Origin: a virus
Length of the DNA stretch: 64,000 nucleotides
Direction: 5' to 3' (one strand)
Virus record (IMG/VR): IMGVR_UViG_3300037201_000018
Coordinates: 1 to 64,000 of that record
Below are positions 776 to 18,703 of the stretch, one piece after another; positions within the stretch are counted from its first letter, which is position 1, and the number at the start of each line of letters is the position of its first letter. Below the pieces are notes generated by a model that worked only from the letters and a program-made list of their open reading frames with translations, was not told the origin of the DNA and did no database searches. The translations under genes and the position numbers were made by a program.

Positions 776-3481
776 ATGACGGAAGGCAATGGAGACGATC
801 GAGGTAGATTAACAGCAAATGAAGAGCGCAAGCAGTTCCCCGAGGGGATGTATCCACAGCAACGGCTGACCCATGCCGAGGAGGACGCGCTCTGGTCCCA
901 CGTGATGGACTACGTCGAGAACGCGGGGATGGCACGCAACGACGGGCCGCAGCAGGGGTCGATCACCAGTCGCAACGAGCTGTTCCGAGCCTGGAGGCAC
1001 AACCCGCTCCGGCTGATCAGCGAGGAGTGCGGCTATCCGGACACGATGGCGATCGAGCCAGACACGTACCGGACGTTCTACGACCGTGAACCGATCGCGA
1101 CTCTGGTCTGTCAACTCTTACCGCGTGAGTCGTGGCAGGTATCTCCGCGGGTCTATGAGGACGAGGACCCGCAGAACGAGACCCCCTTCGAGAAGAGGTG
1201 GGCTGAAATCGACCGACTGCTTCACGGTCAGAGTTGGTATCGAGACATGAAGGGTTCCCAAATCTGGGAGCACCTGAGGAGGGCGGATGAGTTATCAGGG
1301 ATTGGTAGCTTCGGGGTTTTACTCATGGGATTCAATGATGGACGTCGGTTGGATGAACCTGTACCAGGGGCACTTGGGGGAGGTACGCAGTTCGACACTG
1401 GAGGCGAACCCCTTTCACGTGTTGGCGTCTACTCCGGCGAGAAGGAAGGTCCACAGAGCCAGTCACAAGGGGGTCCAGGCTCAGGCGTCAACTCGCACAA
1501 GATCGGGAACCTCGTCGAGCCAAACAAGCTGACGCAGGGTGGACTGCCGCAGTATCGCTATGACAGCCAGCTGTTGGGTACTGACGCGCAGTACGTCGGC
1601 GTTCAACTCAGTCATGACATCATTCCCCCGAAGGGGAAGGGACAACAACTCGACCTACTATTCTTGAGGGCCTTCGATGAAAGTCTCGTCCAGATCGTCC
1701 AGTATGAAGCTGACCTTCGCAATCCACGATTTGGTCTCCCTGTCATGTATCGTATTACTCTTAATGATCCGCGGGAGCTGCACTCGGGAATTGGATTACC
1801 TCTTGCTACCATTAGGGTGCATTGGAGCCGCGTCATCCATCTCGCCGATAATCTTGGATCTTCTGAGATCTTTGGCGTCCCCCGGATGCGACCGGTCTTC
1901 AACCGACTGATCGACCTCGCGAAGGTCTACGGAGCCAGTGCACAGGGGTACTGGTACGGCGCGTTCATGGGCCTAGCATTCACGACGCATCCCCAGCTAG
2001 GTGGTGACGTGAAGATCGACGTGGCTCAGATGCGGCAGCAGTCGAGGGACTACTTCAAGCGACTGAACCGGGCGATCACCGCCAGCGGGATGAACGTGCA
2101 GCCCCTCGCACCGCAGGTCAGCGATCCGACGGCACAGATCAAGGCACTCTTGGAGTGCATCGCGATGCAACTGAGAGTCCCCATGCGGGTCTTCATGGGA
2201 TCAGAACGAGGTGAACTCGCCAGCAGTCAAGACATGCAGGCCCACAATGGTAGACTCGCGTTTAGGCAGAACAACTACCTGACGCCGAGGGTCATCATAC
2301 CGTTTGTGGACCGGTTGATTTCGGTTGGCGTGCTACCCGAGCCGAACAGCAAGGTCCCAACAGCAAATAAACGGATGAGAAGGTCTCTCATTGCTAACAA
2401 GAGGTACGGCTGGTGGACGACGTACCAGAGGTGGTTGGAGGGCGGCAACTGCGGAGGATACGAGGTTCACGAGGCCGAGCGAATTACGGTGAATGTGGAG
2501 TCCAAGGCCGAGAAGCGGCAGCTGCTGTTGGGATTGAGCCAAGAGGCTGACGCGACTGATCTGTATCCTCAGCCCGAGGCTTACGGTGGCCTGATCGTCC
2601 TGAACGAGGCCCCTCCGCAGGACGCTACTCAAGGACAAGGGGAGACAGACGAGGACCAAGCGGAAGATCCCACATCTGATGACGATGAATCAGACTCTAC
2701 GACCGAGGAAGCTTCGGGTGGGTACGTCGTGGACTGGCCAGATATGGAGGCCCTAACGGACGCTGAGAAGGCGGCCATCGCCCAGCAGCTCTCCTCCGCG
2801 CTGGCGACCTATGTCCAGTCGGGTGCCGAGAACGTGTGTCCTCCCGCGATCTTCATGAGTGCGATCATGAGGCTGGACGAGGAGACGGCCAACATGATGA
2901 TCGATGCCGCGATGGAAGCCCTGGAAGACCCCTCTGACCGGCTGACCCCTGACCCGATGGACCAGAAGGAACGAGAGAAGGAGGCTCACGAGACAGACCA
3001 GCAAGGCCAGCAACAGGGTCAGGAGCAGCAGGCCGAGAGCCACGACCAGAACCTCCAGCAAGGTCAAGAAGCTCACGAGAAGGCCATGAGCGAACCACCG
3101 CCGGACGAGGCCGATGAGGAGCCACCTGGCAAGCCTACGAGCAACGCCGACCGATCCAAGGCCGAGGCGTTCATGAGGAAGTACATGGGAACCGTAACGG
3201 GCAACGAGAAGGATGCGCTGGGACATGGGTCTGATGCTAAAGGGGAACGATCGCTGATAAGGAAAGGTAAAAAAGAATCTAGGCAGCAGAAAAAGTCAGA
3301 CGAAATCCATCTCAAGAAGCTAGAAGGAAAGTCACCAGAGGAAGTCAATCAACTCATAGCGACTGACCACTACATTGGGGCAGCTATGAGTCGGCAGGGG
3401 ATGAAATCATCTGACTTCAAGAGTCCGCCCGCGGGACCGATGCCTCCGGGGAGCAGCGACAAGGAACAGACTGGGGCGTAG
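776..3481 (+). CDS. portal protein (DUF1073-like) with insertions and an acidic/Gln-rich C-terminal extension
   Basis: Motifs VHWSRVIHLAD, FGVPRMRPVFNRLIDLAKVYGASA, VPMRVFMGSERGELASSQD and PFVDRLISVGVLPEP resemble DUF1073-type portals; lies upstream of MuF/protease/capsid. Confidence 0.85.
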   Translation: MTEGNGDDRGRLTANEERKQFPEGMYPQQRLTHAEEDALWSHVMDYVENAGMARNDGPQQGSITSRNELFRAWRHNPLRLISEECGYPDTMAIEPDTYRTFYDREPIATLVCQLLPRESWQVSPRVYEDEDPQNETPFEKRWAEIDRLLHGQSWYRDMKGSQIWEHLRRADELSGIGSFGVLLMGFNDGRRLDEPVPGALGGGTQFDTGGEPLSRVGVYSGEKEGPQSQSQGGPGSGVNSHKIGNLVEPNKLTQGGLPQYRYDSQLLGTDAQYVGVQLSHDIIPPKGKGQQLDLLFLRAFDESLVQIVQYEADLRNPRFGLPVMYRITLNDPRELHSGIGLPLATIRVHWSRVIHLADNLGSSEIFGVPRMRPVFNRLIDLAKVYGASAQGYWYGAFMGLAFTTHPQLGGDVKIDVAQMRQQSRDYFKRLNRAITASGMNVQPLAPQVSDPTAQIKALLECIAMQLRVPMRVFMGSERGELASSQDMQAHNGRLAFRQNNYLTPRVIIPFVDRLISVGVLPEPNSKVPTANKRMRRSLIANKRYGWWTTYQRWLEGGNCGGYEVHEAERITVNVESKAEKRQLLLGLSQEADATDLYPQPEAYGGLIVLNEAPPQDATQGQGETDEDQAEDPTSDDDESDSTTEEASGGYVVDWPDMEALTDAEKAAIAQQLSSALATYVQSGAENVCPPAIFMSAIMRLDEETANMMIDAAMEALEDPSDRLTPDPMDQKEREKEAHETDQQGQQQGQEQQAESHDQNLQQGQEAHEKAMSEPPPDEADEEPPGKPTSNADRSKAEAFMRKYMGTVTGNEKDALGHGSDAKGERSLIRKGKKESRQQKKSDEIHLKKLEGKSPEEVNQLIATDHYIGAAMSRQGMKSSDFKSPPAGPMPPGSSDKEQTGA

Positions 3482-3739
3482 GTTAAAATAGACGTGAAGG
3501 AGACGACGATGCGAGGAAGCTTGAAGTCCAAGGCCCACGCGGAGAGAGCCAAGATGGAGGGGATCTTTAGGATTCGAGAGCGAGTCTCTCCCAGGTGGCT
3601 GACGCTGGACAAGAGTCGTAATGACGTCTTCAACTGGCTGATGGGCGGCAGGGAGCGTAAGACCCTGAGACAGCAGAGGTGGGCCAAGATCGTCTACAAG
3701 CGCAGACGGTTGGAAGTCGTAGAATAACTGGAGAAGGCT

Positions 3740-4126
3740 ATGAACAAAGAGAAAGCGATTGCTTATCTGAGGAACTGGAGGAATAGCGGCCCTGGGAATT
3801 GTTCAAACCTATTGCCATTGATCATTGACTTACTACTGGAAGGCCAATCAGAACCGACCAAGCCGCAGACCTACGGTGAGAAGATCGCTGAGGAGAGGAT
3901 CACAGTGGGCGAGACGAGTAACTACGCTCGACTGACAAGCAAAGACGAAACCTTCGACGTTTGTTCTACATCCATGAGAAACGGATTGGATAGCAAGTTG
4001 AAATCATTCTTCTCATTGGATAGCAAGTTGAAATCATTCTTCTCAGCTGCACTCGACGAGGCGTTCGAGGCAGAGAAAGCTGCTGGAGTGAGCGAGTACA
4101 TTACAAGTCGAGAGAGACCAGAGTGA
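3740..4126 (+). CDS. hypothetical protein with a 10-aa tandem duplication
   Basis: AACTGGAG RBS at 3726; LDSKLKSFFS present twice. Confidence 0.55.
   Translation: MNKEKAIAYLRNWRNSGPGNCSNLLPLIIDLLLEGQSEPTKPQTYGEKIAEERITVGETSNYARLTSKDETFDVCSTSMRNGLDSKLKSFFSLDSKLKSFFSAALDEAFEAEKAAGVSEYITSRERPE
3985..4045. repeat. perfect 30-bp tandem duplication
   Basis: attggatagcaagttgaaatcattcttctc twice in tandem, in frame. Confidence 0.95.
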
Positions 4127-4881
4127 TCAAGCGAACCCATACACCTAGTAAGTGTCCGCTCTCCCGAGAGGAGGAGAATCAGCTCGTGGAAGCCGCGAAG
4201 GGCGGGGACGCGGTTGCCTTCGACCGGCTGTGGGAGACGTTCAAGTACATGGGCTTGAGGGTCGTGATCGCGAGGTGTCGCTTCGGGTTTACCAACGACG
4301 AGCGGGATCAGGTGATCAGGATCAGTCTGTGGGACGCTGTGAGGAAGTTCGACCCTTCCCGCAGGATCAGGTTCGGGACCTATGTGTTCAACTGGTTCAG
4401 GCAGGGAGCGAACAGGCTGTTGGACAACGAGGGATGTCGTATCATCAGAGTCCCGCGGACCCAAGCGACGACGACTTCGAGGACAGGATGCAAGCGGAAG
4501 TATCTGGATAGAACAACAGACGCCAAGCGGAGGATGCGGGAGGCCGCGATCTTCAGCTTGAGTACCGAGGCGAAGAGCGGAAGACCGAGACACGAAGGCG
4601 TCTCCAGCAGAGATCAGCTTGAAGTCTGGGAAGAGGTAGACACCAAGCTAGAAGTCGAAGCGACTCATGCACGATTGCGGCTAGTTCTCAGCGAACGATC
4701 GGTGAGCATCCTGGAACGTCGAGCTAGTGGGATGACGTTGAGGGCGATAGCGGAGTCTGAGGGAATAACCCACGAGCGAGTTAAGCAGATCCAGGTCAAC
4801 GCGATCATCAAGTTGCAACGGAGGTATCCAAGTCTCCTGCGTTGTACGAGTCGTAGGAACAGCTCAAGGAGGGCAGTATGA
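4123..4881 (+). CDS. sigma-70 family RNA polymerase sigma factor
   Basis: Region 1.2-like LSREEENQL, region 2 DAVRKFDPSRRIRFGTYVFNWFRQ, region 4 HTH MTLRAIAESEGITHERVKQIQVNAIIKL. Confidence 0.85.
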   Translation: MIKRTHTPSKCPLSREEENQLVEAAKGGDAVAFDRLWETFKYMGLRVVIARCRFGFTNDERDQVIRISLWDAVRKFDPSRRIRFGTYVFNWFRQGANRLLDNEGCRIIRVPRTQATTTSRTGCKRKYLDRTTDAKRRMREAAIFSLSTEAKSGRPRHEGVSSRDQLEVWEEVDTKLEVEATHARLRLVLSERSVSILERRASGMTLRAIAESEGITHERVKQIQVNAIIKLQRRYPSLLRCTSRRNSSRRAV

Positions 4882-6909
4882 AAGTGGTGCTCATCGACGG
4901 CTGCCAGGTGCCGCAGATCGTGATCCCCAAGAACTCGATTCACAAGTTCTCGATGGCTCAGGTTCCGATCGAGCTGGCTGAGTCGGGGATCGAGACGAAG
5001 GATAGACTCGTCCACTCGGTGACCTATGGCAAGCGAACGTATCACATGATCTGCTTCGACACGAACCTCTGGATAGACATGGAGACCGGCGACGTCGTTA
5101 CGATCGAGGTAAGCAAGTAGGAACGACGAGATGACAGATGAAAGAGAGTCGTATGGAAAGGATAGGATTGAGATGAATGAGGAAGCCCTGACCTGTGGGA
5201 CGTGCAGGAACTGGATCAAGTTGCCCCCGAACATCGCAGCCTTGAAGGAGGTCAGGGGGCAGTGTCGAGCGATCCCGCCTCAGGCGATGCCCTTGTACTC
5301 GGCAAGGCAGCAGATGACGAGCGAGGGCATGTTGCTGATCCTGACCCCAGTCCTCGACGCTCATAGTGTCAACGCGGCCTATCCAGTTCTTCCTCCCGAG
5401 TTCCCTGCCTGCGGTCAACACGTCAGGCGAGAGACCTGGCAGCAGGGGAACTACGACGCAGAGGAGGGAGTGCTGTGATGCCGATGCCGATCGAGTGTTC
5501 ACTAGGTTCGCTGCCGTCAAAGGAAAGTCCTTGGTCGGTCAGCATGATCCCGGAAGAGGGAGCTGCGTTGCTGATGACCGAGTTGAAGTCAGTTCCAAGA
5601 TACTCGAACCTTTGGAGCTGGTTTAGGAAACGACCCACCTCTTATGACGTCATCTGTCGATTCGCGTTCAACTTCGATTTGCCAGTAGTTGAGACATTCA
5701 CGAACGTCACTTATCGTCCGAAGGGGATACTGTAATGGTCAGTAAAACGAGGCAGATCCAAATCGGTTATCTAGCCGAAGGTCGTTGTGAGTGTGGGCGA
5801 ACGAAACGCCCAGATCGGTATCGCTGTGAAGTCTGCTTGGCAAAGCATCGTAGGATCAAGTTGGAGAAGAGACATGTCAGCTGACAGACGTGAGATTGTC
5901 GTTCAGGATCAGGGGAAGATCGTCGTCGTGACTAACGACAAGGAAGTCGAACTGGGGATCGAGAGCCCCTGCTGCACCTGCGTCGCCCCCGTCTTCCGGT
6001 TGAACCTGTTCAGAGCGAGAGCCCTGAGAGCCGCACTGACAGACGCGATCGTCAACCTCGTCGGGACCGAGGCGAAGAGGAACGACTCGATCGAGGAGGA
6101 AGCTGAGTGATCTACAACATGCAAAACACGTGTGACACTGGTAGGTTCGTCGAGAAGATCATCGACGCTGGGGGGAGGGTCGTGTCAAGTAACGAGGCGT
6201 CGTCTAAGATTGGAGCGATCGAGTGCGACACGGAGACCGGCAGGGTCTACGGCCTGAAGCGAGAGAATGGAAAGTACGTGTACTACTATGACAAGGGAGA
6301 GGCCGTGAGGATGACGGAGTACTTCCCTGCTCCGCTGCGAGTCGTCTTCTTTGACGATCCTAAGACACCCAAGCCTGAGACTTGGCGTGACCGCTCGCCG
6401 TTGTTGCGAGAGGGAGTCGAGTAGGTGACCAGTTCGCACTGTCCTTACAAGCTGCTCCCCGAGACACTGAGGATGTTTGTAGACACTGAGATCGCAGTAC
6501 AGACTGGTAAGGGAGTCTGGCCTGAGTTGAATTTCTTCACGCCTAACAAGGACGGCATACCTCCGCTGATGATGATCTATGATAGGCTGAAGAAGGAACC
6601 CAACCTCTCTGATGTCCACTACACAATCGGTCCTTACGGATTTAGCATGTGGGTCATGAAGACGATCGGCGGACACGTATTGGAGATATGATGAACTCGA
6701 TCAAGCTGCACCCCGACCACTGGGACGACTTCCGATTGAGGGAGTTCTCGGAAGCGATCGACGTTCACAACCGACGGTTCAGAGTCGGTAACGCTCAGAG
6801 CGAAGAGTCGATCACGGCTGAGGAACACGAGGAGCGAGAGAGTCGCATCCCACTGTACGCCGAGAGAGCTAAGGAACGTCTCAACCTGTTCACGGGGAAG
6901 GGTAACTGA
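4878..6909 (+). CDS. cluster of small hypothetical ORFs (4878-5120, 5131-5478, 5475-5735, 5787-6110, 6107-6424, 6425-6691, ~6688-6909)
   Basis: Tightly packed co-oriented ORFs with overlapping start/stop codons; 5131-5478 has a CxxC...C...C pattern. Confidence 0.55.
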
Positions 6910-9900
6910 TGCTCCTGAAGCCTAAGATGAGGAAGCTCCCCAAGCGGACGAAGGCCGTGTCCAAGAGGCGAAAGATGATCGCGAGGAAGGAACTCGCGGT
7001 CCGCAACGCTTTCTGTCCAACCGGCGAAGGTGGAGGCCAGGACAACAGCTGTTCGTCCCACGGCAAGTTTGAACTTGGGAAAGGGATTGATCTTCCAAAT
7101 AAACCGCTAGAAAAAGCGATTAGTAATCCGAAGCGACTTCCGAAAGAAGTCGGTGGCCATCGGGTAGTCTACCTGGAAGAGATGAACAACGAGGGTCGAG
7201 CGGACCCAGATGGAACTATCAAAGTCGGCCCGAAGTTCTTCAAGCTGGACGTCGACCAGCAGAATCACGTCTTGATTCACGAGTGGGTCCATCAGAAGAA
7301 CATTGAGACGTCGGTGATGATGGACAACGAGTTCTGGGATCGACTACGCAGCGGAAAGATGTGGGGCAAGCCGGAGGGCGAGTACAATGTCGTCTGGGGA
7401 CCAGGAGGCAACACCCCAAATGAGAATATCGTTGAGACGACGATCGCGATGGTCACTGAGCCAGGCTGGGTGAAGGAGAAGTATTCTGGCGCGTACGACT
7501 ACTTTAGTAAGAAAGTCTTCAGAAATGGTGGACGAGATCTTCAATCTGAGAACCGGGGAGTGGCTAATCTATCTGGGCGAGTCAAAGATAACATCTCTCA
7601 TCGCGGCTCACGCCCAGTCGCTGCGGGATTACAACACCTGGGACTATCGAGCAAAATACCGCTATCTGGTAGTGAGCAACAAGCTGACTCTAAGGTGCGG
7701 GGACTTCGCCATATTCAAAAGAAGCCGACCGTCAACGCCTTTTGTCCGACTGGAGAAGGGGGAGGTCAGGATAATTCCTGCTCGTCCCACGGTGGAGGAT
7801 CGAAGGTAATTGAGACTCCTGAGTTCAAGAAGTGGTTTGGAGACTCGAAGGTCGTCGACGCTCAAGGCAAGCCGGCTGTTGTGTGGCACTCATCTGAAGC
7901 ATTTTTTACTGCGTTTGATCCCGCAAAAATTGGGAGTGGATTCAAGGAGGGGTACGACGGAATTAGAGTGATCGGTAAAGACGGTCAGACGATGGAGTAC
8001 GTCGCCTTTCATCCGACGCAGATTAAGTCAACAGAGAATCGAGGAACGTTCGACGCTAAAGACCCAATCATCACGAACCGCAAGCGTCTAGCGACCGTCA
8101 ATGCCAAGCGAAATCCGCTCAAAGCCGACCCAACCAGAACGGCGTCTCTCCGCAGGAGGTTCATCGCGGACCTCACCCGTAGGTTCAACATCCTCAAGCG
8201 GCGGATCTACAAGCTGATCGTCGAGGAGGACGCCTTCGGACTCAAGTCGAGCAACCACAATCCGTTTACAGCGAACGCTAATTTTTCCAGTACGCAGGTC
8301 AACGTCGACGATGCCTTCGTCGAGCAGCAGATCAAGAGGATTCAGGCGGCGATTAACCCTTCAGACATCGTCGAGCTGGAGGACGAGCCGCACGTCACGG
8401 TTCGATACGGTCTGCACGATCAGGACTCGGCGAGGGTCGAGAAGCTGCTGAGTGAGTGTGGGCCGATCTACGCGAGACTCGGACGGCTATCCCTCTTCAA
8501 GTCGCCAGAGCAGGACGTTCTGAAGATCGACGTCCGCAGCAACCAGATGGACGGACTCAACCGGCGACTGAAGCTACTCCCGAATACCGAGACGTTCCGT
8601 GAGTACCATCCCCACCTCACGATCGCCTACCTCAAGCCAGGGACCGGACAGAAGTACCTTGACATCCCGACCCAGCTCGAACACAGCAAACTGTTGTTCA
8701 AGTCGCTGGTGTTCTCCAACAAGGACCGCGAGAAGACTGAGCTGATGCTGACGGCGAACGCTTTTTGTCCTACCGGACCGGGAGGTGGGATAGATCCGAC
8801 GTGTTCATTGTCCCCACAGGAGGCAAGTTCGTTAATCTCAAAGATTCGCGGGGGTGACGAGCGGTCTAAAAATAAGGGAGACATACGACCAGAACAGATC
8901 AACAAGTCACAAGTAATTCGGCAAGTTCCGCTCAAGTCAATTCCGCAATCGATTATCGAGTCGCTACGAGAATCCACAGATCGAGCGAGAGTCGCAAAGT
9001 ACGCAACCCAGAAGATCGACACACCTGTGGTCTTAGTCCCCCTCAGAAAGACAAGCGGGTTTGGAGTTTCTGACGGGGGACATCGGATACTTGCGGCGAT
9101 CGAACGGGGCGACACTCACATCAACGCGATCATTCCGGCAGACTCTCAAGATAGATTAACAGCGAATACTCGCTTCAAGTTTCACACGACGAGCGAGCAG
9201 GTCGAGGCTTTTCGCCAGTGGTTGGCCCAGCAGACGCAGTACCTGATCCTCGGAACCTCGCTGCGGGAGATCGAGGACGCTTGGTGGAAGCAGTACGTCA
9301 TGGAGGGTTATGAGAAAGGTGCTGGAAGAGCCTTCTCAGACGTCCGCAAGCCAAAGACGAGCGACAATGTGAAGTTGGACTTCTTCAACGGCACGAAGGA
9401 TCAGTTTCTGCGAGAGTCGTTTGCCCACCCCGTCTCAGTCGACAAGGTCAAGCTGCTGAGTGGGAGGGTCTACACCGAGCTGAAGGGCGTGACGGAGGCG
9501 ATGAGTCAGAACCTCGTGAGGACCTTGACCGATGGGCTGGTCCAGGGAGACTCACCGAGAGAGATCGCGAGGGACATCAACGAGCGAGTCGACGGGATCG
9601 GCAGGCAAAGGGCGGACGTCATCGCGAGAACTGAAATAATCAGAGCCCACGCGGACGGACAGCTGAACGCTCTCCGCGATCTCGGTGTTGAGCAGGTGGG
9701 CGTCCTTGTGGAATTTTCAAGTACGCAGGACGATCTTGTTTGTCCTGAATGTGAGGCGTTGGAAGGGATCGTAATCACGATCGACGAGGCGGAAGGTCAA
9801 ATCCCAGTTCATCCGCAGTGTCGTTGTGCTTGGATTCCTGCGAATGTCGGCGAGGACGAGAAGGATCAGGTTAGGGGCAAGGAGGACGTCGACGACGCGA

Positions 9901-11333
9901 TCGAGGAGGCCAATGACTTGGGGGCAGACATCGACTCGAAGATCAGCAAAGAGCGACCAGAGAGCATTCTGAACTTCGATCCTGACGAGGCTCGTGACGA
10001 GAAGGGAGAGTGGACAAGTGGCGGAGGAACTTCAGAAGGTAAGCCAGAATCTTACAAGGACATTAAAAAGCGGATAATGAAAGAGTGGCCGAGGGCGGGC
10101 AAGATGGTTGGCGGTCTTCGAGCGTTGCGAGGAGTCCCAGTACCGAATACTGATTCGATCAGTGCCTCGATGACAGACTACGAGGAGTTGCCCGGAATCC
10201 GTGAGGTTCCCCTCTCGGCTTTCAAGGGCCTCGGTAATAAGTCGTACTCCACGGAGCGAGATGAGAAGGTAGACAAGCTCGCGGCTAGAATCAAGAAGTC
10301 TGGTAAGATCGTCCCCCTAATCGTCGTCTACGATAAGCATCCTGACAACCCGAGTTACATTCTGGAAGGAGGGCATCGCTCTGACGCACTGGCGAGACTC
10401 GGAGTGAAGTCGCTGCCGGCCCTCGTCGTACTGGATCGTGGAGCGATACGCGAGCACTCTAAGAAAGCCTCTACAAAGAACTCTGAAAGTATTCTCAACC
10501 GAATTTGGAACGCCTTGAGAGGGAAGAGGACCGATAACGCATTTTGTCCCACAGGGCTTGGAGGAGGCGTCGACGATTCGTGCTCGCCTGGGGGCGGGCC
10601 AAGTGGGATTGACATCGGTAAGTTAGGAACTACGCCGCACGACGAATGGAAGAACCTCAAGGGCGACTCCAAGTTCATCTACCACGCAACGAATCTGGAC
10701 AACCTACACGACATTAGTCAGGGTAAACTGGAGCCGCACAAGCCCAGCTTCGGGACTGACCAAAGAGAATGGCCTGACGGGTCTCGTGAGAAGCGGAGCT
10801 ACTTTAGCCACGAGCCTTCCATTGCTTGGCAGTTCGCCCCCGAAGAAGGAAAGCCAGTATTGCTGAGGATTCCCCGCGGTCCGAAACTGAAACAAGAGTC
10901 GACGGGGGACTACTACACAACGGCACACGTCGGGCGGGAGAAGGTTGAAGTTTCTACGAAGAATGGCTGGGTTAATCTGTCAAGTGGCCAAATGACTGAA
11001 AATGCAGAAGTGATGAACGTAGCGACTGTGAACCTGTTCGTGTATGGGACGTTCAAGGATGCAGGCACGCTCGACCGAGTCGCTGGTCGTGACGTCTCTC
11101 GTGAAGAGGCGACGCTGGATGGCTACCGACACGATACGGGTACTGACGGTTACAGCTACCTCCGACGAGATCCCTCCGCGTCGGTCCCCGGCTTCCTCGT
11201 CCGTCTGACCCCGCAGGAGCTACAGAAGACTGATCGCTGGGAAACTCGTTACGAACGGGAGTGGGTTACTCTCAAAGATGGGACTCGTGCCTGGGCCTAC
11301 TTCATCGACCCAAAGGACGTAGACAAGTCGTGA
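6909..11333 (+). CDS. multidomain (polyvalent) head morphogenesis protein, MuF/SPP1 gp7 family, carrying zincin-like, truncated ART-like, 2H phosphoesterase, two ParB/Srx-like, ART-like and gamma-glutamylcyclotransferase-like domains
   Basis: MuF core RADVIARTEIIRAH...VCPECEALEG...IPVHPQCRCAWIP; HEWVH; HVT...HLT; DGGHR and EGGHR; YHAT...SYFS; LFVYGTF. Confidence 0.85.
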   Translation: MLLKPKMRKLPKRTKAVSKRRKMIARKELAVRNAFCPTGEGGGQDNSCSSHGKFELGKGIDLPNKPLEKAISNPKRLPKEVGGHRVVYLEEMNNEGRADPDGTIKVGPKFFKLDVDQQNHVLIHEWVHQKNIETSVMMDNEFWDRLRSGKMWGKPEGEYNVVWGPGGNTPNENIVETTIAMVTEPGWVKEKYSGAYDYFSKKVFRNGGRDLQSENRGVANLSGRVKDNISHRGSRPVAAGLQHLGLSSKIPLSGSEQQADSKVRGLRHIQKKPTVNAFCPTGEGGGQDNSCSSHGGGSKVIETPEFKKWFGDSKVVDAQGKPAVVWHSSEAFFTAFDPAKIGSGFKEGYDGIRVIGKDGQTMEYVAFHPTQIKSTENRGTFDAKDPIITNRKRLATVNAKRNPLKADPTRTASLRRRFIADLTRRFNILKRRIYKLIVEEDAFGLKSSNHNPFTANANFSSTQVNVDDAFVEQQIKRIQAAINPSDIVELEDEPHVTVRYGLHDQDSARVEKLLSECGPIYARLGRLSLFKSPEQDVLKIDVRSNQMDGLNRRLKLLPNTETFREYHPHLTIAYLKPGTGQKYLDIPTQLEHSKLLFKSLVFSNKDREKTELMLTANAFCPTGPGGGIDPTCSLSPQEASSLISKIRGGDERSKNKGDIRPEQINKSQVIRQVPLKSIPQSIIESLRESTDRARVAKYATQKIDTPVVLVPLRKTSGFGVSDGGHRILAAIERGDTHINAIIPADSQDRLTANTRFKFHTTSEQVEAFRQWLAQQTQYLILGTSLREIEDAWWKQYVMEGYEKGAGRAFSDVRKPKTSDNVKLDFFNGTKDQFLRESFAHPVSVDKVKLLSGRVYTELKGVTEAMSQNLVRTLTDGLVQGDSPREIARDINERVDGIGRQRADVIARTEIIRAHADGQLNALRDLGVEQVGVLVEFSSTQDDLVCPECEALEGIVITIDEAEGQIPVHPQCRCAWIPANVGEDEKDQVRGKEDVDDAIEEANDLGADIDSKISKERPESILNFDPDEARDEKGEWTSGGGTSEGKPESYKDIKKRIMKEWPRAGKMVGGLRALRGVPVPNTDSISASMTDYEELPGIREVPLSAFKGLGNKSYSTERDEKVDKLAARIKKSGKIVPLIVVYDKHPDNPSYILEGGHRSDALARLGVKSLPALVVLDRGAIREHSKKASTKNSESILNRIWNALRGKRTDNAFCPTGLGGGVDDSCSPGGGPSGIDIGKLGTTPHDEWKNLKGDSKFIYHATNLDNLHDISQGKLEPHKPSFGTDQREWPDGSREKRSYFSHEPSIAWQFAPEEGKPVLLRIPRGPKLKQESTGDYYTTAHVGREKVEVSTKNGWVNLSSGQMTENAEVMNVATVNLFVYGTFKDAGTLDRVAGRDVSREEATLDGYRHDTGTDGYSYLRRDPSASVPGFLVRLTPQELQKTDRWETRYEREWVTLKDGTRAWAYFIDPKDVDKS

Positions 11334-11732
11334 CGTTTCATCATCTCAAATTCATGACGAAGTTGAGGCTGCGACGGCTGATCTGTCGACTGATCGGTCA
11401 CGACAACGAGTTCATCGAGTCTAGCGAGATGGAGCCATATGCCTTCCTGAAGTGTCGCCGCTGTTGGTACTGCGAGGAGCGAGTCCCGATCTCGTTCAAG
11501 CAGTGGTGCCTCGCCAAGTTCAGGTACGACCAGATGTCGGAAGAGCTATACGAGATCAACACGCGAGGTTTGTAGAAGTGAATAGGACTCAGGCTATCTA
11601 TTGGGTGCTCATCTGCTTCTACGTGTTACTATTCGCGTCTGAATCTTACGACCGTAACTGGTCCAAGTCAGTCTATTGGGTTGGTGCTCTGATTCTGACA
11701 TTCGCACTTATGAAAATGAAGTAGGAGCTTGA

Positions 11733-12059
11733 TTGATGTCGAATGGAGTCAAGCCACAGTTCACTGAGACTCAGCAGAAGATCGTCAACCTGCTGAGTGA
11801 CGGAAACGCACACCAGCGGAAGAAGCTCCATGTACTTCTACCAGATCCGCAGAGCAAACTTAGCTCCATCAACATCCACATCAGCCGCATTCGAGAGAAG
11901 ATCGAGCCACAGGGATACACGATCGTTTGCGAGCTGGTGAACCGACAGATCTGTTATCGTCACGTCAGACTGTTGCATCCTGACTCTCCGGTGCCTGGCT
12001 ACAATCATCACAACACGCTGAAGAGACAACAACGAGCCGCCGACTGGGACGAGAGATAG
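11733..12059 (+). CDS. winged-helix DNA-binding protein (OmpR/PhoB C-terminal-like)
   Basis: SSINIHISRIREKIEPQG resembles the trans_reg_C recognition helix. Confidence 0.6.
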   Translation: MMSNGVKPQFTETQQKIVNLLSDGNAHQRKKLHVLLPDPQSKLSSINIHISRIREKIEPQGYTIVCELVNRQICYRHVRLLHPDSPVPGYNHHNTLKRQQRAADWDER

Positions 12060-12094
12060 TTTATTACGATAAACTTCTTCAGTCTCAGTTATCG

Positions 12095-12122
12095 TTGACA
12101 TAGCCTCAAATCTATTTATCTC
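12095..12122 (+). promoter_or_regulatory. possible sigma-70 promoter upstream of the protease gene
   Basis: Perfect TTGACA at 12095 in an AT-rich intergenic gap; -10 is weak (TATCTC). Confidence 0.3.
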
Positions 12123-12149
12123 CGCTGCTCTCCCCCTTAATTTAAGGGC

Positions 12150-15100
12150 ATGAGCACCTCGACAAAGCTCGGCAGTGCCAAATCTCTCGTCGCCAATCAT
12201 CGGCAGACAGAAACTCATCCAGTCTTCCAAGAGATCGTCGCCAACCTCTCAACGGGGAAGGTCAGACGCGAGCGACTCGATGGTAATACTTACCTCGTCG
12301 CTCACGCCACGATCCTGAAGCAGGGAGTTCTGAACGGCAGCAAGGGTGCGCTGTTCTACCCCGACTCCGAGATCGCGAAGAACTACAGGGATTGGGACGG
12401 GGTCCTCCTAACTCTGTACCACCCGATGGCCGCCAACGGCGAGCACCTCTCCGCCAACCATCCCGGCGTCTCTGACCGTCAGGGAATCGGCTTCGTTAAG
12501 CGACCGAGACTCGAAGGCAAGCTGAGGGTCAACGCCTTCTTCGACGAGACCAAGCTGACTCAGATGGCCAAGTCAAATACAGAAGCGAGGAGAGTCTTGA
12601 ACGCTCTCGAAAACGGCGAGCCCCTCGAACTCTCAACTGGGTTGTTCACCGAGAACGAGAAGGCAGCGGTCGGTTCGAACTATCGCGGCAAGCCCTACGA
12701 GTTCGTCGCCCGCAATTACACCCCGGACCACGTGGCTGTCCTTCCGGGTCAGGTCGGTGCGTGCTCGAACAACGACGGCTGCGGAATCCTGGTGAACAGC
12801 AGCAGCCAAGTCCAAACTGAACTCGACCTCCTCGTCAACGGTGGACCCGGTTCTGGCCCACGACCCGGAGTCAAATTCGTTCAAAGAAAAAATCCCTCAT
12901 TTAGTAGGCCAGAAACCCACGTTGCAAAAACTGACAAAGGAACATACTCGATCACACCAACAGAGAGCGGACATCATTTAACCTATGAAACTGGAAGACA
13001 AAGAGAAAATTGGACAGTAGGCCAATCTACTTTCAAATCTCTTGGAGTACATCCAACTGTCGACGCAGCTAAGTCTGCCGCTGATTCACACTACTCCTCT
13101 CCAGCAAATAATTCTTCCTATCTACTTGTCAACGCTAAGAAGGAAAGAGACATGGGACCGGAGGACGACGAGGATGAGGAAGACGACGACGAGGTGACCG
13201 ACAACGAGCCAGAGACGGTCGAGGGGATGGAGGACGAGGAAGCTGGCGGGGGTGACGTCCCTACGCCAACCGGCAACCAGGAGCGGAAGCGAACCTTCCG
13301 AGGCTGGCTGGGTGAGCTGCTGAAGATCGCCAACGATCCTAACTACGAGCCAACGAACAACGGAGGCCCAGGTAGTGGCCCGCAAGGCGGTGGTAGTAGT
13401 CCTAAGAAATTCGATGAGATTAGAGAAGAACACGTAGCTCCAATCATCGAGCATCTACGAGCAGGCAGAAACTCAGAAGCACAGTCTCATATGGATGCCC
13501 TGCTAAAAGGAGTAAAGGCGAAGGATTGGGAAGCTCGATTGTTAGCTGAAAAGGTCAAAGAAAAAGCTGGAGTAAAACAACAAACACGAGCCGAAAGAAA
13601 AGCTGCGGCTAAAGAGATCACAGGAAATACGTGTGGAAAATGCGGGGGAACTGGAATTGTAACGAAATGGTTTGGCGAACCTCCTCGCACTGGAGCTACG
13701 ACTAGTTGCGGAAGATGTGGAGGTAACGGTAAAAGTTTACTACATAACCGTAAGTTCGCGAGACTGCTGGAAGCGACGTATAACGCTCGGTGGCCGGAGG
13801 AACGTAAGCAGCAGACCCAGCAGCGAGACTTCGCCGGACGTTACCCCATCGCCAACCAAGCGGACCTCGACGCCGTCTGCTACTTGGTCGAGAACGGTGG
13901 ACCTGGAAGTGGGCCACACGCTGGGGGCGGATCTGCGGCGAGACAGGCTTCTGAAAACGCTTCTACAAAGACGGCAGAAGCTGGAAAGAATTATGGGTCG
14001 AGTAATTATTTCAAAATGATGGCTCAACGAGCTGTGGATCATGCAAACCAGGGAAATCACACAGCGGCTGCGAAAGAGCACACGAAACTTGCAGCTGACC
14101 ACCGAGACTCTGCGAAGTTGTATCCAGGTATTTCATTAAGCCATTTGGCAGCTGCGAAAGCGCATGAGACGGCAGCTACTGCTCATTTGGCAATGACCCA
14201 TAACCGCGACATCTCGCAAAAAACTCGCGACAAGATGCCCGAGTCGGACTTCGCTGGAAGCGGTACTTCGTTCCCGATCAAGACCCAGGCCGACGTCGAG
14301 GCCGCTGCCCACTCGCTCGGAAGGACGGGTCAGGACCGAGACAAGATCAAGTCGAGGATCAAGTCGATCGCCAAGCGGAAAGGACTGACGCTACCTGACT
14401 CGATGAAGGACGACGAGAAACCTGCTGACAACGAAGACCTGAACCTGAAGGTCGACGGTATTGGCCTCGACCAGAACAAGCCAGCGCTGAAGAACGCCTC
14501 AAAGGCCGCGAAGGGGAGTTTCAGACCGATGGGAAGCAGCTACCTTTCAAGCAACACGACGAGCGGCAAGCAGATGAGCCACGACGAGATCCGCGGGCAC
14601 CTTCAGAAGGGCCTTGATCAGTCCTCGACTCACGACGAACCCCAGCCCCTGATCCACTCAGTCTACGACGACCACTGCGTCTACTCGAAGGGGGGTGATC
14701 TCTTCAAGCAGGGCTACACGAAGTCCAAGACGAGCGACGGTAGGCAAGTAGCTGAACTCGATAAGGAAGAGCCTGAGAAGGTTCTCAAGGGCGAGTCGAT
14801 CTATCCAGATGACGTCGACACTTCGGCGAAGTATCACGGACAGAAGCTAACCTCCGACAACCCAACTGCGAACGAAAAAGATGCTCTTGGTCATGGATCA
14901 GATAAGCGAGGGCAGGAGGGTAAAAGTTCCTTACCTAACCGAGCTAAGGACGCCAGTTCAAGCGCCGAAGCAATGAGTGGTCTGGCAGGGTCGATGACTG
15001 ACCGATTGAAGGGCGCTGTCGCTGAGGCGAGAGGACATGCTACGAACGCACTGGCTGCTGCGGGAAAAGGAGAGCACGGATCAGCGGCCGGATTCCATAT

Positions 15101-16127
15101 GAAAGCGGCAGAGAGACACTACGCTCTGGCGACCCATCCTGACAACGAAGGAACGTACTTCGCTAACGCCAATATGAAGGCTTCAGACGCGCACGATGCA
15201 GCGGCCAAGTTGCAAATGCAGATGCAACGTCGGGGTGGCATTAAAAAATCTACCAACAATTCCATGTTCCGTAAGGAGATCACGATGAGGAAGTTCACTG
15301 CGGACGAGAGGGATCTGCTCACGGAGCAACTCGTCGCGAACTGTGACTGCGAAGACCGAGCCGAGGAAGTTCAGAACGAACTGAACGAGCTTTCCGACGA
15401 GGCGTTCGGCCTCGTGGCCAACTCGATCACATCGAATGTGACGCCGGGTGGGACGAGGGTCGGCGATGGCAAGAAGATGATCCCTGCCTCCAAGGGTGGA
15501 GGCGACACGGGTTCGTATCCTTCGAGCGGTGTGAAGGGGGGTAATCAAGACGCGGACGCTGATGGAGACCCGCAGAAGGGGACGGCAGCTGCGAAAGCAG
15601 GATTGGGGGTTCATACGGAAGGCAAGTCACCACGCAAGACGGGGAAGCAAGTCATGGGCATCGAGGACGTCACGACCGACAACCAGCTCAGCTGGGAGGA
15701 GTGGGTCGCCAGCCCTGAGTTCAAGAGCCTGCCGAAGATCGTGCAGAACACGCACCTTCAGTCGAAGAGATGGTGGGATGATCAAAAATCATCGCTGATC
15801 AATCAGCTCGTCTCGAACATGGAAGGCGACGAGCGGAAGCAGCGGGAGACGTTCTACGGGGCGATGGAGCCGGACGCGCTCCAGACGATCCTCGAAGACC
15901 GCGAACGATCGACTCCGACTCGTAACGTCCGAGTTCACGTCCCGCCGGTCCCGAACTACGTCGGTGCAGCCGGTGGTCCCTCGGCGGGAATTGGTGGCTC
16001 CGGAAACCGTCAACTGTCTACCAAGGACATGGACGCTGACCAGCTCCTGCCGCCAACTGTGAACTGGTCGAAGGTCAGCGAGGAGAACGCCAAGCACTTC
16101 GCCAAGAGCAAGGTGTCGGCCAGCTAG
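12150..16127 (+). CDS. prohead protease/scaffold polyprotein (DUF2213-like N-terminal protease with inserted modules)
   Basis: LKQGVLNG, WDGVLLTLYHP, LELSTGLF and PDHVAVLPGQVGACSNNDGCG match DUF2213-type proteases; directly precedes decoration and capsid genes. Confidence 0.8.
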   Translation: MSTSTKLGSAKSLVANHRQTETHPVFQEIVANLSTGKVRRERLDGNTYLVAHATILKQGVLNGSKGALFYPDSEIAKNYRDWDGVLLTLYHPMAANGEHLSANHPGVSDRQGIGFVKRPRLEGKLRVNAFFDETKLTQMAKSNTEARRVLNALENGEPLELSTGLFTENEKAAVGSNYRGKPYEFVARNYTPDHVAVLPGQVGACSNNDGCGILVNSSSQVQTELDLLVNGGPGSGPRPGVKFVQRKNPSFSRPETHVAKTDKGTYSITPTESGHHLTYETGRQRENWTVGQSTFKSLGVHPTVDAAKSAADSHYSSPANNSSYLLVNAKKERDMGPEDDEDEEDDDEVTDNEPETVEGMEDEEAGGGDVPTPTGNQERKRTFRGWLGELLKIANDPNYEPTNNGGPGSGPQGGGSSPKKFDEIREEHVAPIIEHLRAGRNSEAQSHMDALLKGVKAKDWEARLLAEKVKEKAGVKQQTRAERKAAAKEITGNTCGKCGGTGIVTKWFGEPPRTGATTSCGRCGGNGKSLLHNRKFARLLEATYNARWPEERKQQTQQRDFAGRYPIANQADLDAVCYLVENGGPGSGPHAGGGSAARQASENASTKTAEAGKNYGSSNYFKMMAQRAVDHANQGNHTAAAKEHTKLAADHRDSAKLYPGISLSHLAAAKAHETAATAHLAMTHNRDISQKTRDKMPESDFAGSGTSFPIKTQADVEAAAHSLGRTGQDRDKIKSRIKSIAKRKGLTLPDSMKDDEKPADNEDLNLKVDGIGLDQNKPALKNASKAAKGSFRPMGSSYLSSNTTSGKQMSHDEIRGHLQKGLDQSSTHDEPQPLIHSVYDDHCVYSKGGDLFKQGYTKSKTSDGRQVAELDKEEPEKVLKGESIYPDDVDTSAKYHGQKLTSDNPTANEKDALGHGSDKRGQEGKSSLPNRAKDASSSAEAMSGLAGSMTDRLKGAVAEARGHATNALAAAGKGEHGSAAGFHMKAAERHYALATHPDNEGTYFANANMKASDAHDAAAKLQMQMQRRGGIKKSTNNSMFRKEITMRKFTADERDLLTEQLVANCDCEDRAEEVQNELNELSDEAFGLVANSITSNVTPGGTRVGDGKKMIPASKGGGDTGSYPSSGVKGGNQDADADGDPQKGTAAAKAGLGVHTEGKSPRKTGKQVMGIEDVTTDNQLSWEEWVASPEFKSLPKIVQNTHLQSKRWWDDQKSSLINQLVSNMEGDERKQRETFYGAMEPDALQTILEDRERSTPTRNVRVHVPPVPNYVGAAGGPSAGIGGSGNRQLSTKDMDADQLLPPTVNWSKVSEENAKHFAKSKVSAS

Positions 16128-18085: not shown

Positions 18086-18703
18086 ATGGTGACAGCTGAG
18101 TTAGAACGCCCAGTAGAGGCGAAGAAGACTCCCGAGGCTCCCAAGCCCAAGAAGTACAAGTTCCGATTGAACTACTCAACCTACGTGGCCAACCAGGGCT
18201 ACGAGCACATCTTCGTGGAGGTCTACAACGAGCAGGGAGAGGTCGTCGGGAAGAAGCCTGTCGACCTCCGTGCCAAGCCGCCCAAGATCTACCGTGCCCT
18301 TTCCCCGACCGGGAAGAAGGTCCACCCCGATGACTGCAACATCATCGAGACGGACCTGGAGCTGGACGTCCTGTTCCCCACGCTGCCCTCGACGAACTAT
18401 CCCTTGCAAAAGTTCACGCGGTTGAGCGGTCCTTCGGGCGTCCCCCTGGACGATGCAGCGCAGGAGGCGTATCGGCTCGGAGTCGAGGAAGGAATGAAGC
18501 GAGCGAGGGGAGAGCAGCCAGTGGACTCGATCGGAGATCCGGTCGTAGCCGCCCCAGTAGAGTCGGCTTCAGGAGTCGACATCCGGGCGACCTACGAAGC
18601 GATGACCGAGGACGACCTGCGACAGTTAGCAGCGAGCGAGGAGATCGACCTCAACGGATGCCGTACCAAGAAGCAGGTCATCGACCGCTTCATGCATTCC
18701 TAA
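18086..18703 (+). CDS. virion-associated protein with C-terminal Rho-N/HeH-like domain
   Basis: C-terminal YEAMTEDDLRQLAASEEIDLNGCRTKKQVIDRF; follows the capsid gene. Confidence 0.55.
   Translation: MVTAELERPVEAKKTPEAPKPKKYKFRLNYSTYVANQGYEHIFVEVYNEQGEVVGKKPVDLRAKPPKIYRALSPTGKKVHPDDCNIIETDLELDVLFPTLPSTNYPLQKFTRLSGPSGVPLDDAAQEAYRLGVEEGMKRARGEQPVDSIGDPVVAAPVESASGVDIRATYEAMTEDDLRQLAASEEIDLNGCRTKKQVIDRFMHS

Follow-up and report, generated by a model that had tools for sequence, protein, structure and literature searches.

Together with their DNA, phages inject proteins that disarm host defences, and T4 and a few giant phages are, to our knowledge, the only ones for which it is known how such cargo is chosen, loaded, released and delivered. 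The propeptide sites of giant phages end in Glu, and we know of no conserved header after the cut in them. Encapsulin cargo-loading peptides are short terminal peptides that dock in a conserved pocket of the HK97-fold shell protein. In the giant phages phiKZ, 201phi2-1 and SPN3US, a prohead protease of the assemblin fold cuts many injected proteins of the head interior (PMC10052503, PMC7411985). The T4 prohead protease, gp21, removes the capsid targeting sequence (CTS) from the proteins IPI-III and Alt (Mullaney and Black 1996, reviewed in PMC9026906); the CTS can be transferred to unrelated proteins. Polyvalent proteins were described by Iyer, Burroughs, Anand, de Souza, and Aravind (2017, PMC5512222) as MuF-anchored chains of effector domains that are predicted to be packaged, processed, and injected. 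In the available text of that paper, processing is ascribed mainly to embedded MPTases, the words "linker" and "cysteine" are not used, and mentions of cleavage or processing are about peptidase domains, with no junction motif.

The locus analysed here belongs to an uncultured phage with a genome of 94,383 bp, the first 64,000 nt of which are referred to as the window. Six-frame scans of the window and of the whole genome gave ten motif copies, all in frame and all in the portal, MuF, and protease ORFs: NAFCPTGxGGGxDxxCS four times in MuF, NGGPGSGP three times in the protease-led ORF, NEKDALGHGSD once in the portal and once in the protease ORF, and NFDPDEARDEKGEWTSGGG once in MuF. Their positions (Table 1) agreed exactly with those in the earlier note. 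The degenerate DNA pattern of the CPTG tag matched the window four times, against 0.00 expected from 100 shuffles. All ten tags were preceded by (T/V/I/L)-x-N, with the Asn immediately before the tag. The motifs had been thought each to begin at an Asn site, and this is so throughout the present phage, but the Asn turned out to be a lineage-specific upstream site that lies outside the tag and is R, K, E, L, or Y/F in other phages. The scans found no further copies elsewhere in the 94,383-bp genome except GGPGSG at 1469. That copy lies in the portal and is preceded by Gln, not Asn.

The motifs are probably the header part of two-part junctions, a protease site plus a header, that divide carrier proteins into exchangeable cargo cassettes. 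The carriers would be three procapsid-internal proteins, namely the portal, MuF, and the prohead protease/scaffold, each split into cargo modules. The first part of a junction would be a cut site specific to the lineage; in this phage it is (T/V/I/L)-x-Asn, and the phage's own assemblin-fold protease is the enzyme most likely to cut there. The second would be an interchangeable header (AFCPTGxGGGxDxxC, GGPGSGP(H), xKDALGHGSD, or (F/Y)DPxxxRDxxGxW), followed by a Gly/Ser-rich spacer and then a variable domain. Carrier domains would bring the polyproteins into the procapsid, and inside the head the protease would separate them into modules; cut apart at the junctions, each freed module would therefore begin with a header. 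Units of tag plus domain would behave as cassettes that insert between sites already present and pass from phage to phage, with adaptation to the resident protease confined to the residues before the tag. Cleavage at the junctions, and its position, are predicted from sequence, and the modules would be packaged and injected.

Table 1. Portal, MuF, protease and capsid features of the window (a slash marks the predicted cut)
Feature	Coordinates	Strand	Basis or remark
Portal protein, 901 aa	776..3481	+	phrog_146 portal 2.4e-38; Pfam Phage_portal_3
Tag N/EKDALGHGSD copy 1, after T-G-N	3203..3235	+	Six-frame scan
MuF polyvalent protein, 1474 aa	6909..11333	+	Pfam, PHROGs, module homologies to relatives
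CPTG tag copy 1, V-R-N/AFCPTGEGGGQDNSCS	7005..7055	+	32 aa past start codon
CPTG tag copy 2, T-V-N/AFCPTG...	7734..7784	+	Heads ART-PolyVal remnant
CPTG tag copy 3, T-A-N/AFCPTGPGGGIDPTCS	8757..8807	+	Heads ParB-like module and MuF core
Tag N/FDPDEARDEKGEWTSGGG, R-D-x-x-G-x-W family	9972..10028	+	After MuF core
CPTG tag copy 4, T-D-N/AFCPTGLGGGVDDSCS	10536..10586	+	Heads phrog_3147 and GGACT modules
Prohead protease domain (putative), aa 1-216 of 1325-aa ORF 12150-16127	12150..12797	+	phrog_760, weak DUF2213, fold
Cassette A, N/GGPGSGP and 98-aa module ending L-L-V-N	12837..13133	+	GC3 0.28
Cassette B, N/GGPGSGP and module ending L-L-H-N	13359..13748	+	GC3 0.30
Cassette C, N/GGPGSGPHAGGGS and His/Ala-rich helical module ending M-T-H-N	13893..14204	+	GC3 about 0.38
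Tag N/EKDALGHGSD copy 2, after T-A-N	14871..14903	+	Six-frame scan
Major capsid protein candidate, 415 aa	16780..18027	+	phrog_771 match aa 97-413

The MuF ORF lies between the portal and the protease and capsid genes, i.e., in a head-gene neighbourhood, and has profile matches to Phage_Mu_F (8.5e-14) and phrog_758 (1.3e-35). Its modules are, in order, a leader, a zincin-like HEWVH module, a truncated ART-PolyVal, a MuF N-segment, a 2H phosphoesterase, a ParB-like module, the MuF core, ParB_N, a phrog_3147 domain, and GGACT. Effector-type matches were obtained for ART-PolyVal, 2_5_RNA_ligase2/Acb1-like 2H, ParB_N (weak), GGACT, and phrog_3147, in addition to the HExxH module; as the earlier note had said, the motifs precede domains unrelated to one another (Pfam/PHROGs). 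Several unrelated effector-type domains are thus fused to a virion head domain, and ART-PolyVal, 2H phosphoesterase, ParB-like, and zincin-like peptidase domains are also those of the polyvalent proteins in PMC5512222. Unlike there, the two-part grammar of site plus header is present here, extends to the portal and protease ORFs, and points to the prohead protease. The portal, 36-60% identical to those of the N-lineage loci, carries an acidic C-terminal extension and a tail module; this final 92-aa part is headed by the first EKDALGHGSD copy, and its GC3 is down to ~0.4-0.5. In the protease ORF, the module of cassette B has two CxxCxGxG knuckles, the tag and module of cassette C have a 36% identical counterpart in the relative P0004, and the second EKDALGHGSD copy heads the C-terminal scaffold-like part.

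Judged from its model, the domain at the start of the protease ORF is a protease of the assemblin/T4 gp21 fold. The AF2 model (pLDDT 80.5, pTM 0.72) had T4 gp21 (5jbl) as its top PDB match in Foldseek (prob 1.00, E 2.6e-3, TM 0.60 on target) and herpesvirus assemblins (pseudorabies, HCMV, and KSHV proteases) as the next ones, no match having E <= 0.001. Residues H91, S162, and H194 were invariant across 14 sequences, and their order His...Ser...His is that of assemblin, as read from a sequence alignment. The domain terminates in a conserved ...DGCGILVN, and the conserved Asn ends the protease domain in those relatives whose aligned segment is long enough to include it. The closest relatives of the domain in cultured phages are only about 30% identical, and papers on DUF2213 proved uninformative. 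If the grammar is true, this uncharacterised branch of assemblin-fold proteases may have a new Asn-type specificity. A short consensus site for an assemblin-fold prohead protease is also found in the giant phages (PMC10052503, PMC7411985), for which the cleavage predicted here from sequence would be a parallel; their cargo is mostly encoded by separate genes, whereas the chains here are fused to the portal, MuF, and the protease.

IMG/VR was searched with the pattern C-P-T-G-x-G-G-G-x-D-x-x-C, which gave at least 193 in-frame copies of the CPTG tag in at least 119 stretches, with up to 7 copies per ORF among the matches listed. Because nine tag positions were set in the pattern itself, their conservation is partly by construction; P-to-A variants (e.g., AFCATG) occur. 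The 148 segments downstream of the tag among the matches listed included ART-PolyVal, ADPrib_exo_Tox, Ntox46, Zeta toxin, sigma-70, topoisomerase IB, GNAT, C39 peptidase, and MuF domains. About 120 of these 148 segments had no Pfam match and, being without a known family, make up a catalogue of candidate anti-defence proteins. In the cultured phage collection, a 26-aa query for the tag gave no tblastn match, which is probably explained by the shortness and low complexity of the query. Among 185,579 bacterial genomes, the pattern occurred in 10 stretches. About five of these held genuine tags, in every case on a MAG contig, and the other matches seem due to chance. With so few bacterial matches, the tag seems largely confined to uncultured phages. 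A full-text literature search for the CPTG and GGPGSGP motif strings returned no description and matched only two parechovirus papers, both unrelated; the CPTG tag is apparently undescribed.

The placement of the tag was consistent: among the matches listed, none of the 161 unique CPTG tags lay within 60 aa of a true stop, so none ended a module, and 17 lay within 45 aa of the ORF start, after short leaders such as MQLHDKLKILAN and MLPAGLEL. A G/S-rich spacer follows the tag. Like the T4 CTS (PMC9026906), the tags are short peptides that adjoin a P3-x-P1 prohead-protease site, here a predicted one, on diverse and fast-evolving proteins that are destined, here putatively, for the head interior, and from the model the T4 and window proteases share a fold. 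However, the CTS is described there as an N-terminal propeptide upstream of the cut that is discarded, whereas the tags stand C-terminal to the site and would remain on the mature module. They also differ from the CTS in being internal, repeated within polyproteins, of several families, and common to phages with different protease families. The true CTS analogues could, by this comparison, be the short leaders that precede the site in the stand-alone tagged proteins.

The earlier note had proposed capsid-targeting or ejection tags. A tag on every cargo module, in head genes only, and the existence of stand-alone tagged proteins would also fit a capsid-targeting or loading signal that binds the scaffold, the capsid interior, or the portal, in the manner of encapsulin peptides or of a retained CTS. 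In T4, 10 residues suffice for capsid targeting (PMC9026906). Such a signal is nevertheless unlikely: most tagged modules are already fused to the portal, MuF, or the protease and enter the procapsid anyway, and the stand-alone tagged proteins still have a separate leader of 7-30 aa before the site. Phages that differ in their capsid, portal, and protease families bear the same tag, which makes a specific docking partner hard to name, and four or five unrelated tags are interchangeable at one position. No sequence resemblance to encapsulin cargo-loading peptides was seen.

Within each of the at least 119 loci listed, the residues before the CPTG tag were uniform, the sole mixing being of Y and F. 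Among the matches listed, the P3-x-P1 patterns by lineage were TVIL-x-N (50/57), E-x-R (59/73), L-L-E (7/7), and L-x-L (4/4). A homologue of the window's protease domain was present in 14 loci, every one of them N-type; R-type loci had Peptidase_S78 with HK97-type capsid and portal, one K-type locus had Peptidase_S78_2, and no prohead protease was identified by Pfam in the L-L-E lineage. The upstream residues thus appear to track the protease family, (T/V/I/L)-x-N with the present type and E-x-R with the HK97-type S78, a link that covers three classes, one with a single protease hit, and that is confounded by common ancestry, since the N-type loci also share portal and MuF. The unit of CPTG tag plus ART-PolyVal recurs across lineages N, Y, and R; what changes is confined to the residues before the tag.

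These uniform upstream residues bear on three further explanations. The tags might be structural mini-elements, such as metal-binding or disulfide knuckles that stiffen or pair the linkers of a polyvalent protein that stays uncleaved; some such proteins, among them N4 vRNAP, go into the virion unprocessed (Iyer et al. 2017, PMC5512222). The fixed-spacing Cys pair in CPTG, CGGxGGTPGPC, and DCGRDxxGKFGxGNxC and the His/Asp residues in other tags fit this idea, but it leaves unexplained both the change of the within-phage uniform upstream residues with the protease family and why tags are never C-terminal. The R-D-x-x-G-x-W and GGPGSGP tags of the N lineage also have no Cys, and the explanation is judged quite improbable. 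Processing by the MuF zincin-like metallopeptidase in place of the prohead protease has less still to recommend it. The HExxH module does lie between CPTG tags 1 and 2, and MPTase autoprocessing was proposed by Iyer et al. (2017, PMC5512222), but tagged junctions are also found in the portal and protease ORF, the upstream residues follow the prohead-protease family, and many loci have no zincin in the scanned downstream segments (1 ATLF-like match among 148). The HEWVH module itself (about aa 125) had no significant Pfam match. In the Asn lineage, self-cleavage by Asn cyclisation without a protease (asparagine peptide lyase chemistry, cf. nodavirus/tetravirus coat maturation) would suit a P1 that is always Asn, with Gly-Gly, Ala-Phe, or Phe-Asp behind it; succinimides form readily at Asn-Gly, and the nodavirus coat protein is cleaved at Asn/Ala. 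This chemistry is very hard to credit here, as other phages have R, K, E, L, or Y ahead of the same tags, a preference at P3 such as the one seen (T/V/I/L in 50/57) is typical of a protease subsite, and known lyases require a folded catalytic context that the short junctions do not have.

The reading of the motifs as headers of exchangeable cassettes was examined further through codon composition and homology. Several of the domains had been described as more AT-rich than their flanks, which was confirmed as a third-codon-position effect: GC3 was 0.28 at 12861-13124 and 0.30 at 13389-13754, against about 0.75 in the flanks, while GC at codon positions 1-2 was unchanged (0.50-0.53). GC3 falls from ~0.75 to ~0.3 exactly at N/GGPGSGP and rises again at LLVN/ and LLHN/, so the foreign codon composition begins at the tag. 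Cassettes A and B gave the three lowest of the 556 90-codon GC3 windows in the genome (mean 0.67, sd 0.11), and these breaks show that such cassettes are still under exchange. No donor of the low-GC3 cassettes was found in IMG/VR, and a search of 5.8 billion proteins returned only two relatives, both protease-led ORFs with GGPGSGP tags.

Relatives with portal, MuF, and protease backbones 35-55% identical to the present ones varied in the number, position, and content of the cassettes. Tag families were exchanged at equivalent positions, with four or five unrelated tag sequences at one position; the slot after the protease domain held GGPGSGP in the window and P0005, AKDALGHGSD in L072 (as N/AKDALGHGSD, immediately behind its protease domain), and AFCATG in L042. 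Homology blocks to L063 and L042 begin at the third CPTG copy, and ten blocks terminate at MuF aa 1021-1029, at the 9972 tag, the family of which also occurs in the N-lineage loci L015, L072, L078, and L119 and, as the variant DCGRDxxGKFGxGNxC, in about 40 R-lineage copies. Overall, 28 of 98 homology-block endpoints fell at tags versus 10.3 expected (p=6e-7), a count in which HSP endpoints are not independent and which is affected by the tendency of the conserved tag itself to begin or end alignments. The proposal of a plug-in cassette system in the earlier note is supported by the diverse domains after the tag in at least 119 stretches and by the endpoints and codon switch at the tag, and the tag-headed contents of relatives differ, rather than being the same fixed domains in all of them.

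The same note had also suggested recombination anchors and had remarked that the DNA copies differ at synonymous sites. The latter was borne out: CPTG copies 1 and 2 are identical over 20 residues of peptide, yet 11 of their 17 core codons differ, and the two EKDALGHGSD copies are separated by 7 synonymous differences against 0 non-synonymous ones. Selection on the tags acts at the peptide level, not on DNA. Motif DNA kept as homology anchors for cassette-swapping recombination was rejected on this divergence and is scarcely believable, for although composition and homology break points lie at the tags, these are equally expected from selection, as only in-frame insertions between modules survive, while the CPTG copies share just 32-39 of 51 nt with no long identical run, nearly every codon free to differ synonymously does so, and across phages the peptide and not the DNA is conserved.

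As a best guess, the header serves to retain the freed module in the head or to prime its exit and refolding, with protease recognition and primary targeting ranked below these. A bolder suggestion, possible but doubtful, is that CPTG, GGPGSGP, KDALGHGSD, and R-D-x-x-G-x-W make up a small, universal repertoire of portable headers that label the proteins injected by phages, independent of capsid, portal, and protease type. Such labels might hold freed modules in the DNA-filled head, or prime tail exit and refolding in the host, and any domain given a local protease site and a header would then be a deliverable cargo. If true, this simple and widespread grammar of site plus header would make injected effectors predictable from sequence in uncultured phages, and it would give a rule for designing phage heads that carry foreign proteins.

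Taken over all their Asn residues, head proteins were enriched in (T/V/I/L)-x-N only mildly: with the wider set T/V/L/I/A/M at P3, 47-64% of Asn residues in head proteins qualified versus 12-68% in other ORFs of at least 300 aa, and the ranges overlap. With an enrichment so modest, reliance was placed on tag-adjacent sites and conserved positions instead. In the major capsid protein candidate, L-I-A-N and P-V-T-N occur without a tag at aa 88/98, directly before its conserved part.

The tag motifs were located by scanning the window and the complete genome in six frames; the genome is a 94,383-bp IMG/VR virus record, rated complete by CheckV, and its first 64 kb form the window. Four families are present: CPTG (AFCPTGxGGGxDxxC), GGPGSGP, KDALGHGSD and R-D-x-x-G-x-W. 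Every copy reported in the earlier note was recovered at its coordinates, and all lie in three large co-directional genes encoding the portal, the MuF protein and a protease-led protein. No additional copies were found by these scans except one GGPGSG in the portal. The degenerate DNA pattern of the Cys motif gave 4 matches, with 0.00 expected from shuffling. In this phage, (T/V/I/L)-x-N stands upstream of all four families. The proposed Asn start of each tag therefore holds here and fails in other phages, where R, K, E, L, Y or F occupies that position. Coordinates are listed in the table; L-numbers denote IMG/VR stretches carrying the CPTG tag.

Features of the window (nucleotide positions)
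Feature	Position	Remarks
Portal gene	776-3481	phrog_146, Phage_portal_3
GGPGSG in portal	1469-1486	fourth GGPGSG; within portal-core insertion (~aa 210-254) missing in L055 and L040 portals; preceded by Gln, not Asn; G-V-N and I-G-N sites come after
EKDALGHGSD copies	3203, 14871	portal, protease-led ORF
Small genes	3740-6909	~10, function unassigned
Sigma-factor-like gene	4123-4881	phrog_351, 1.1e-23
MuF gene	6909-11333	1474 aa
CPTG tags 1-4	7005, 7734, 8757, 10536	MuF
ART-PolyVal module	7785-8090	MuF aa 293-394
R-D-x-x-G-x-W	9972	MuF
Protease-led ORF	12150-16127	1325 aa; start matches phrog_760 and, weakly, DUF2213
GGPGSGP copies	12837, 13359, 13893	protease-led ORF
Knuckle region in cassette B	13590-13750	protease-led ORF aa 490-533; cassette of low GC3
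Capsid gene candidate	16780-18027	next after protease-led ORF
Capsid aa 1-100	16780-17080	~97 residues precede conserved part
ORF behind capsid gene	18086-18703	205 aa; C-terminal part endonuclease VII-like (phrog_3281, 2.5e-05)

A degenerate search for C-P-T-G-x-G-G-G-x-D-x-x-C found the pattern in at least 119 IMG/VR stretches, with at least 193 in-frame copies and, among the matches listed, up to seven in one ORF. A survey of 185,579 genomes of bacteria and archaea yielded only ~5 genuine tags, each on a MAG contig, and no description of the motif strings was found in the searchable literature. Conservation extends outside the search pattern, with Phe/Tyr/Trp directly preceding the first Cys in 154 of the 161 unique copies listed, Ala/Gly/Val one residue earlier, Val/Ile at +8, Asn/Pro at +10, Ser/Thr at +11 and a Gly/Ser-rich spacer downstream; Pro-to-Ala variants also occur. 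No genuine stop codon is found within 60 aa of any of the 161 tags, and in 17 cases the tag follows a short leader no more than 45 aa from an ORF start, which argues that the tag opens a module rather than closing the previous one. Cataloguing the 148 non-redundant post-tag segments among the matches listed bore out the claim of unrelated downstream domains: ART-PolyVal, ADPrib_exo_Tox, Ntox46, Zeta toxin, sigma-70, topoisomerase IB, GNAT, a C39 peptidase and MuF were identified, and ~120 segments had no Pfam match.

The residue directly upstream of the tag (P1, three before the first Cys) is uniform in each of the 119 loci listed, apart from a Tyr/Phe mix, and varies from phage to phage (R 89, N 64, K 13, E 12, L 6, Y 6 and F 3 among the matches listed). 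Combined with the residue two earlier, it defines lineage patterns, again among the matches listed: (T/V/I/L)-x-N in the N lineage (50/57), E-x-R in R (59/73), L-L-E in E (7/7) and L-x-L in L (4/4). L-L-E matches the T4 gp21-type site. Homologues of the window-type protease domain were present in 14 of the loci fetched, all N-type; R-type loci have Peptidase_S78 together with capsid and portal families of the HK97 type, Peptidase_S78_2 occurs in one K-type locus, and Pfam identified no protease in the L-L-E class. A tag plus ART-PolyVal cassette is common to the N, Y and R lineages, and only the residues upstream of it differ. On the simplest reading, the prohead protease would cut directly before the tag; the protease-lineage link is confounded by shared ancestry. 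In R-lineage loci (e.g., L008, L013, L026, L047 and L077), the 10-12 residues before the tag often resemble M-R-K-(C/Y)-Q-E-F-I-(A/T)-E-R-R, which is presumably akin to the T4 internal-protein capsid targeting sequence, MKTYQEFIAE.

The protease domain was modelled with AlphaFold from the 14 homologues (pLDDT 80.5). The best PDB match was the T4 prohead protease gp21 (5jbl, probability 1.00), with herpesvirus assemblins ranking next; the E-values were weak, at 2.6e-3 and above. All 14 sequences share H91, S162 and H194 without exception, and the domain ends in a conserved DGCG-x-x-x-N in those relatives for which the alignment extends to this point. The N-terminal domain is read as a putative prohead protease, to which a long tail of scaffold and cargo is fused.

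Relatives 35-55% identical in portal, MuF core and protease carry 0 to 7 tag-headed modules, placed in the gap between MuF N-segment and core, behind the core or ahead of the N-segment. Number, location and content all vary, as the plug-in cassettes of the earlier note would. The slot directly behind the protease domain holds GGPGSGP in both the window and P0005 (a relative's protease-led protein), AKDALGHGSD in L072 and AFCATG in L042, and the L072 portal tail has R-D-x-x-G-x-W at the position of the window's EKDALGHGSD. Since equivalent slots hold different families in different phages, the families are interchangeable. A fifth family, N/CGGxGGTPGPC (Cys-x9-Cys; predicted cut site at the slash), was found in relatives' protease ORFs (L028, L088 and P0005), ahead of the protease domain in L088.

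The DNA copies differ at synonymous sites, as previously noted. The four CPTG copies share just 32-39 of 51 nt, leaving no DNA repeat able to anchor homologous recombination, and the suggested role as recombination anchors was dropped. Copies 1 and 2 encode an identical 20 residues with 11 of 17 core codons different, and the two EKDALGHGSD copies have 7 synonymous and 0 non-synonymous codon differences. The target of selection is therefore the peptide, not the DNA.

Sliding-window analysis confirmed AT-richer domains behind motifs. GC3 in the protease ORF falls from ~0.75 to 0.28-0.30 exactly at N/GGPGSGP (aa 231 and 405), and the ~0.75 level is regained at L-L-V-N (aa 328) and L-L-H-N (aa 533). 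A third dip, less deep, begins at the third tag and extends to ~M-T-H-N (aa 685). GC at codon positions 1-2 is unchanged. Among 556 90-codon windows of the genome (mean 0.67, sd 0.11), the three lowest GC3 values belong to these segments, which look like recent imports, each with its own header and closing Asn site; no donor was found in IMG/VR or in a 5.8-billion-protein search. Cassette B, with two CxxCxGxG knuckles and weak DnaJ_CXXCXGXG and phrog_27975 matches, is a predicted small, zinc-ribbon-like cargo module.

The architecture belongs to the polyvalent proteins, and MuF is a textbook example of the class as defined by Iyer et al. 2017 (PMC5512222). It comprises, in order, a basic leader, tag 1, a HEWVH zincin-like module, tag 2, a truncated ART-PolyVal, the conserved MuF N-segment, a 2H phosphoesterase, tag 3, a ParB-like module with the MuF core, the R-D-x-x-G-x-W tag, a ParB_N module, tag 4, and a phrog_3147 domain with GGACT. 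Endpoints of homology blocks between relatives and the window's MuF fell near tags in 28 of 98 cases (10.3 expected, p = 6e-7, for blocks that are not independent), with more peaks at untagged T-A-N (aa 457) and L-T-A-N (aa 747). Judged against tag-headed modules in L110, L036, L033 and L051, the ART-PolyVal module is a remnant that is probably inactive because ~65 central residues are missing and WHSS replaces the conserved YHGT.

In the proposed mechanism, the polyproteins would be brought into the procapsid by the portal, MuF or protease/scaffold portions that they contain, the protease would cleave after (T/V/I/L)-x-N, and every released module would start with a header. T4, with its capsid targeting sequence, and giant phages, with their propeptide processing, follow a similar logic (PMC9026906, PMC10052503); unlike in those systems, the conserved element here lies downstream of the predicted cut, is repeated within polyproteins, occurs as several interchangeable families and is common to phages with different protease families. 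The header is probably dispensable for cutting, since cleavage-like sites without a tag occur at the protease-domain end, cassette ends, the MuF-core end (I-P-A-N/VGED, conserved in relatives) and capsid aa 88 and 98, where L-I-A-N and P-V-T-N are candidate propeptide cut sites. It is probably not the primary docking signal either, because stand-alone tagged proteins keep a separate leader and the tags span unrelated capsid systems. Action after release, in retention in the filled head or in exit and refolding, is favoured with low confidence; a small metal-binding element would also fit the Cys/His/Asp in all tag families. The ~10 small genes are inserted between portal and MuF, an odd location for the transcription factor that the sigma-factor-like gene among them may encode.
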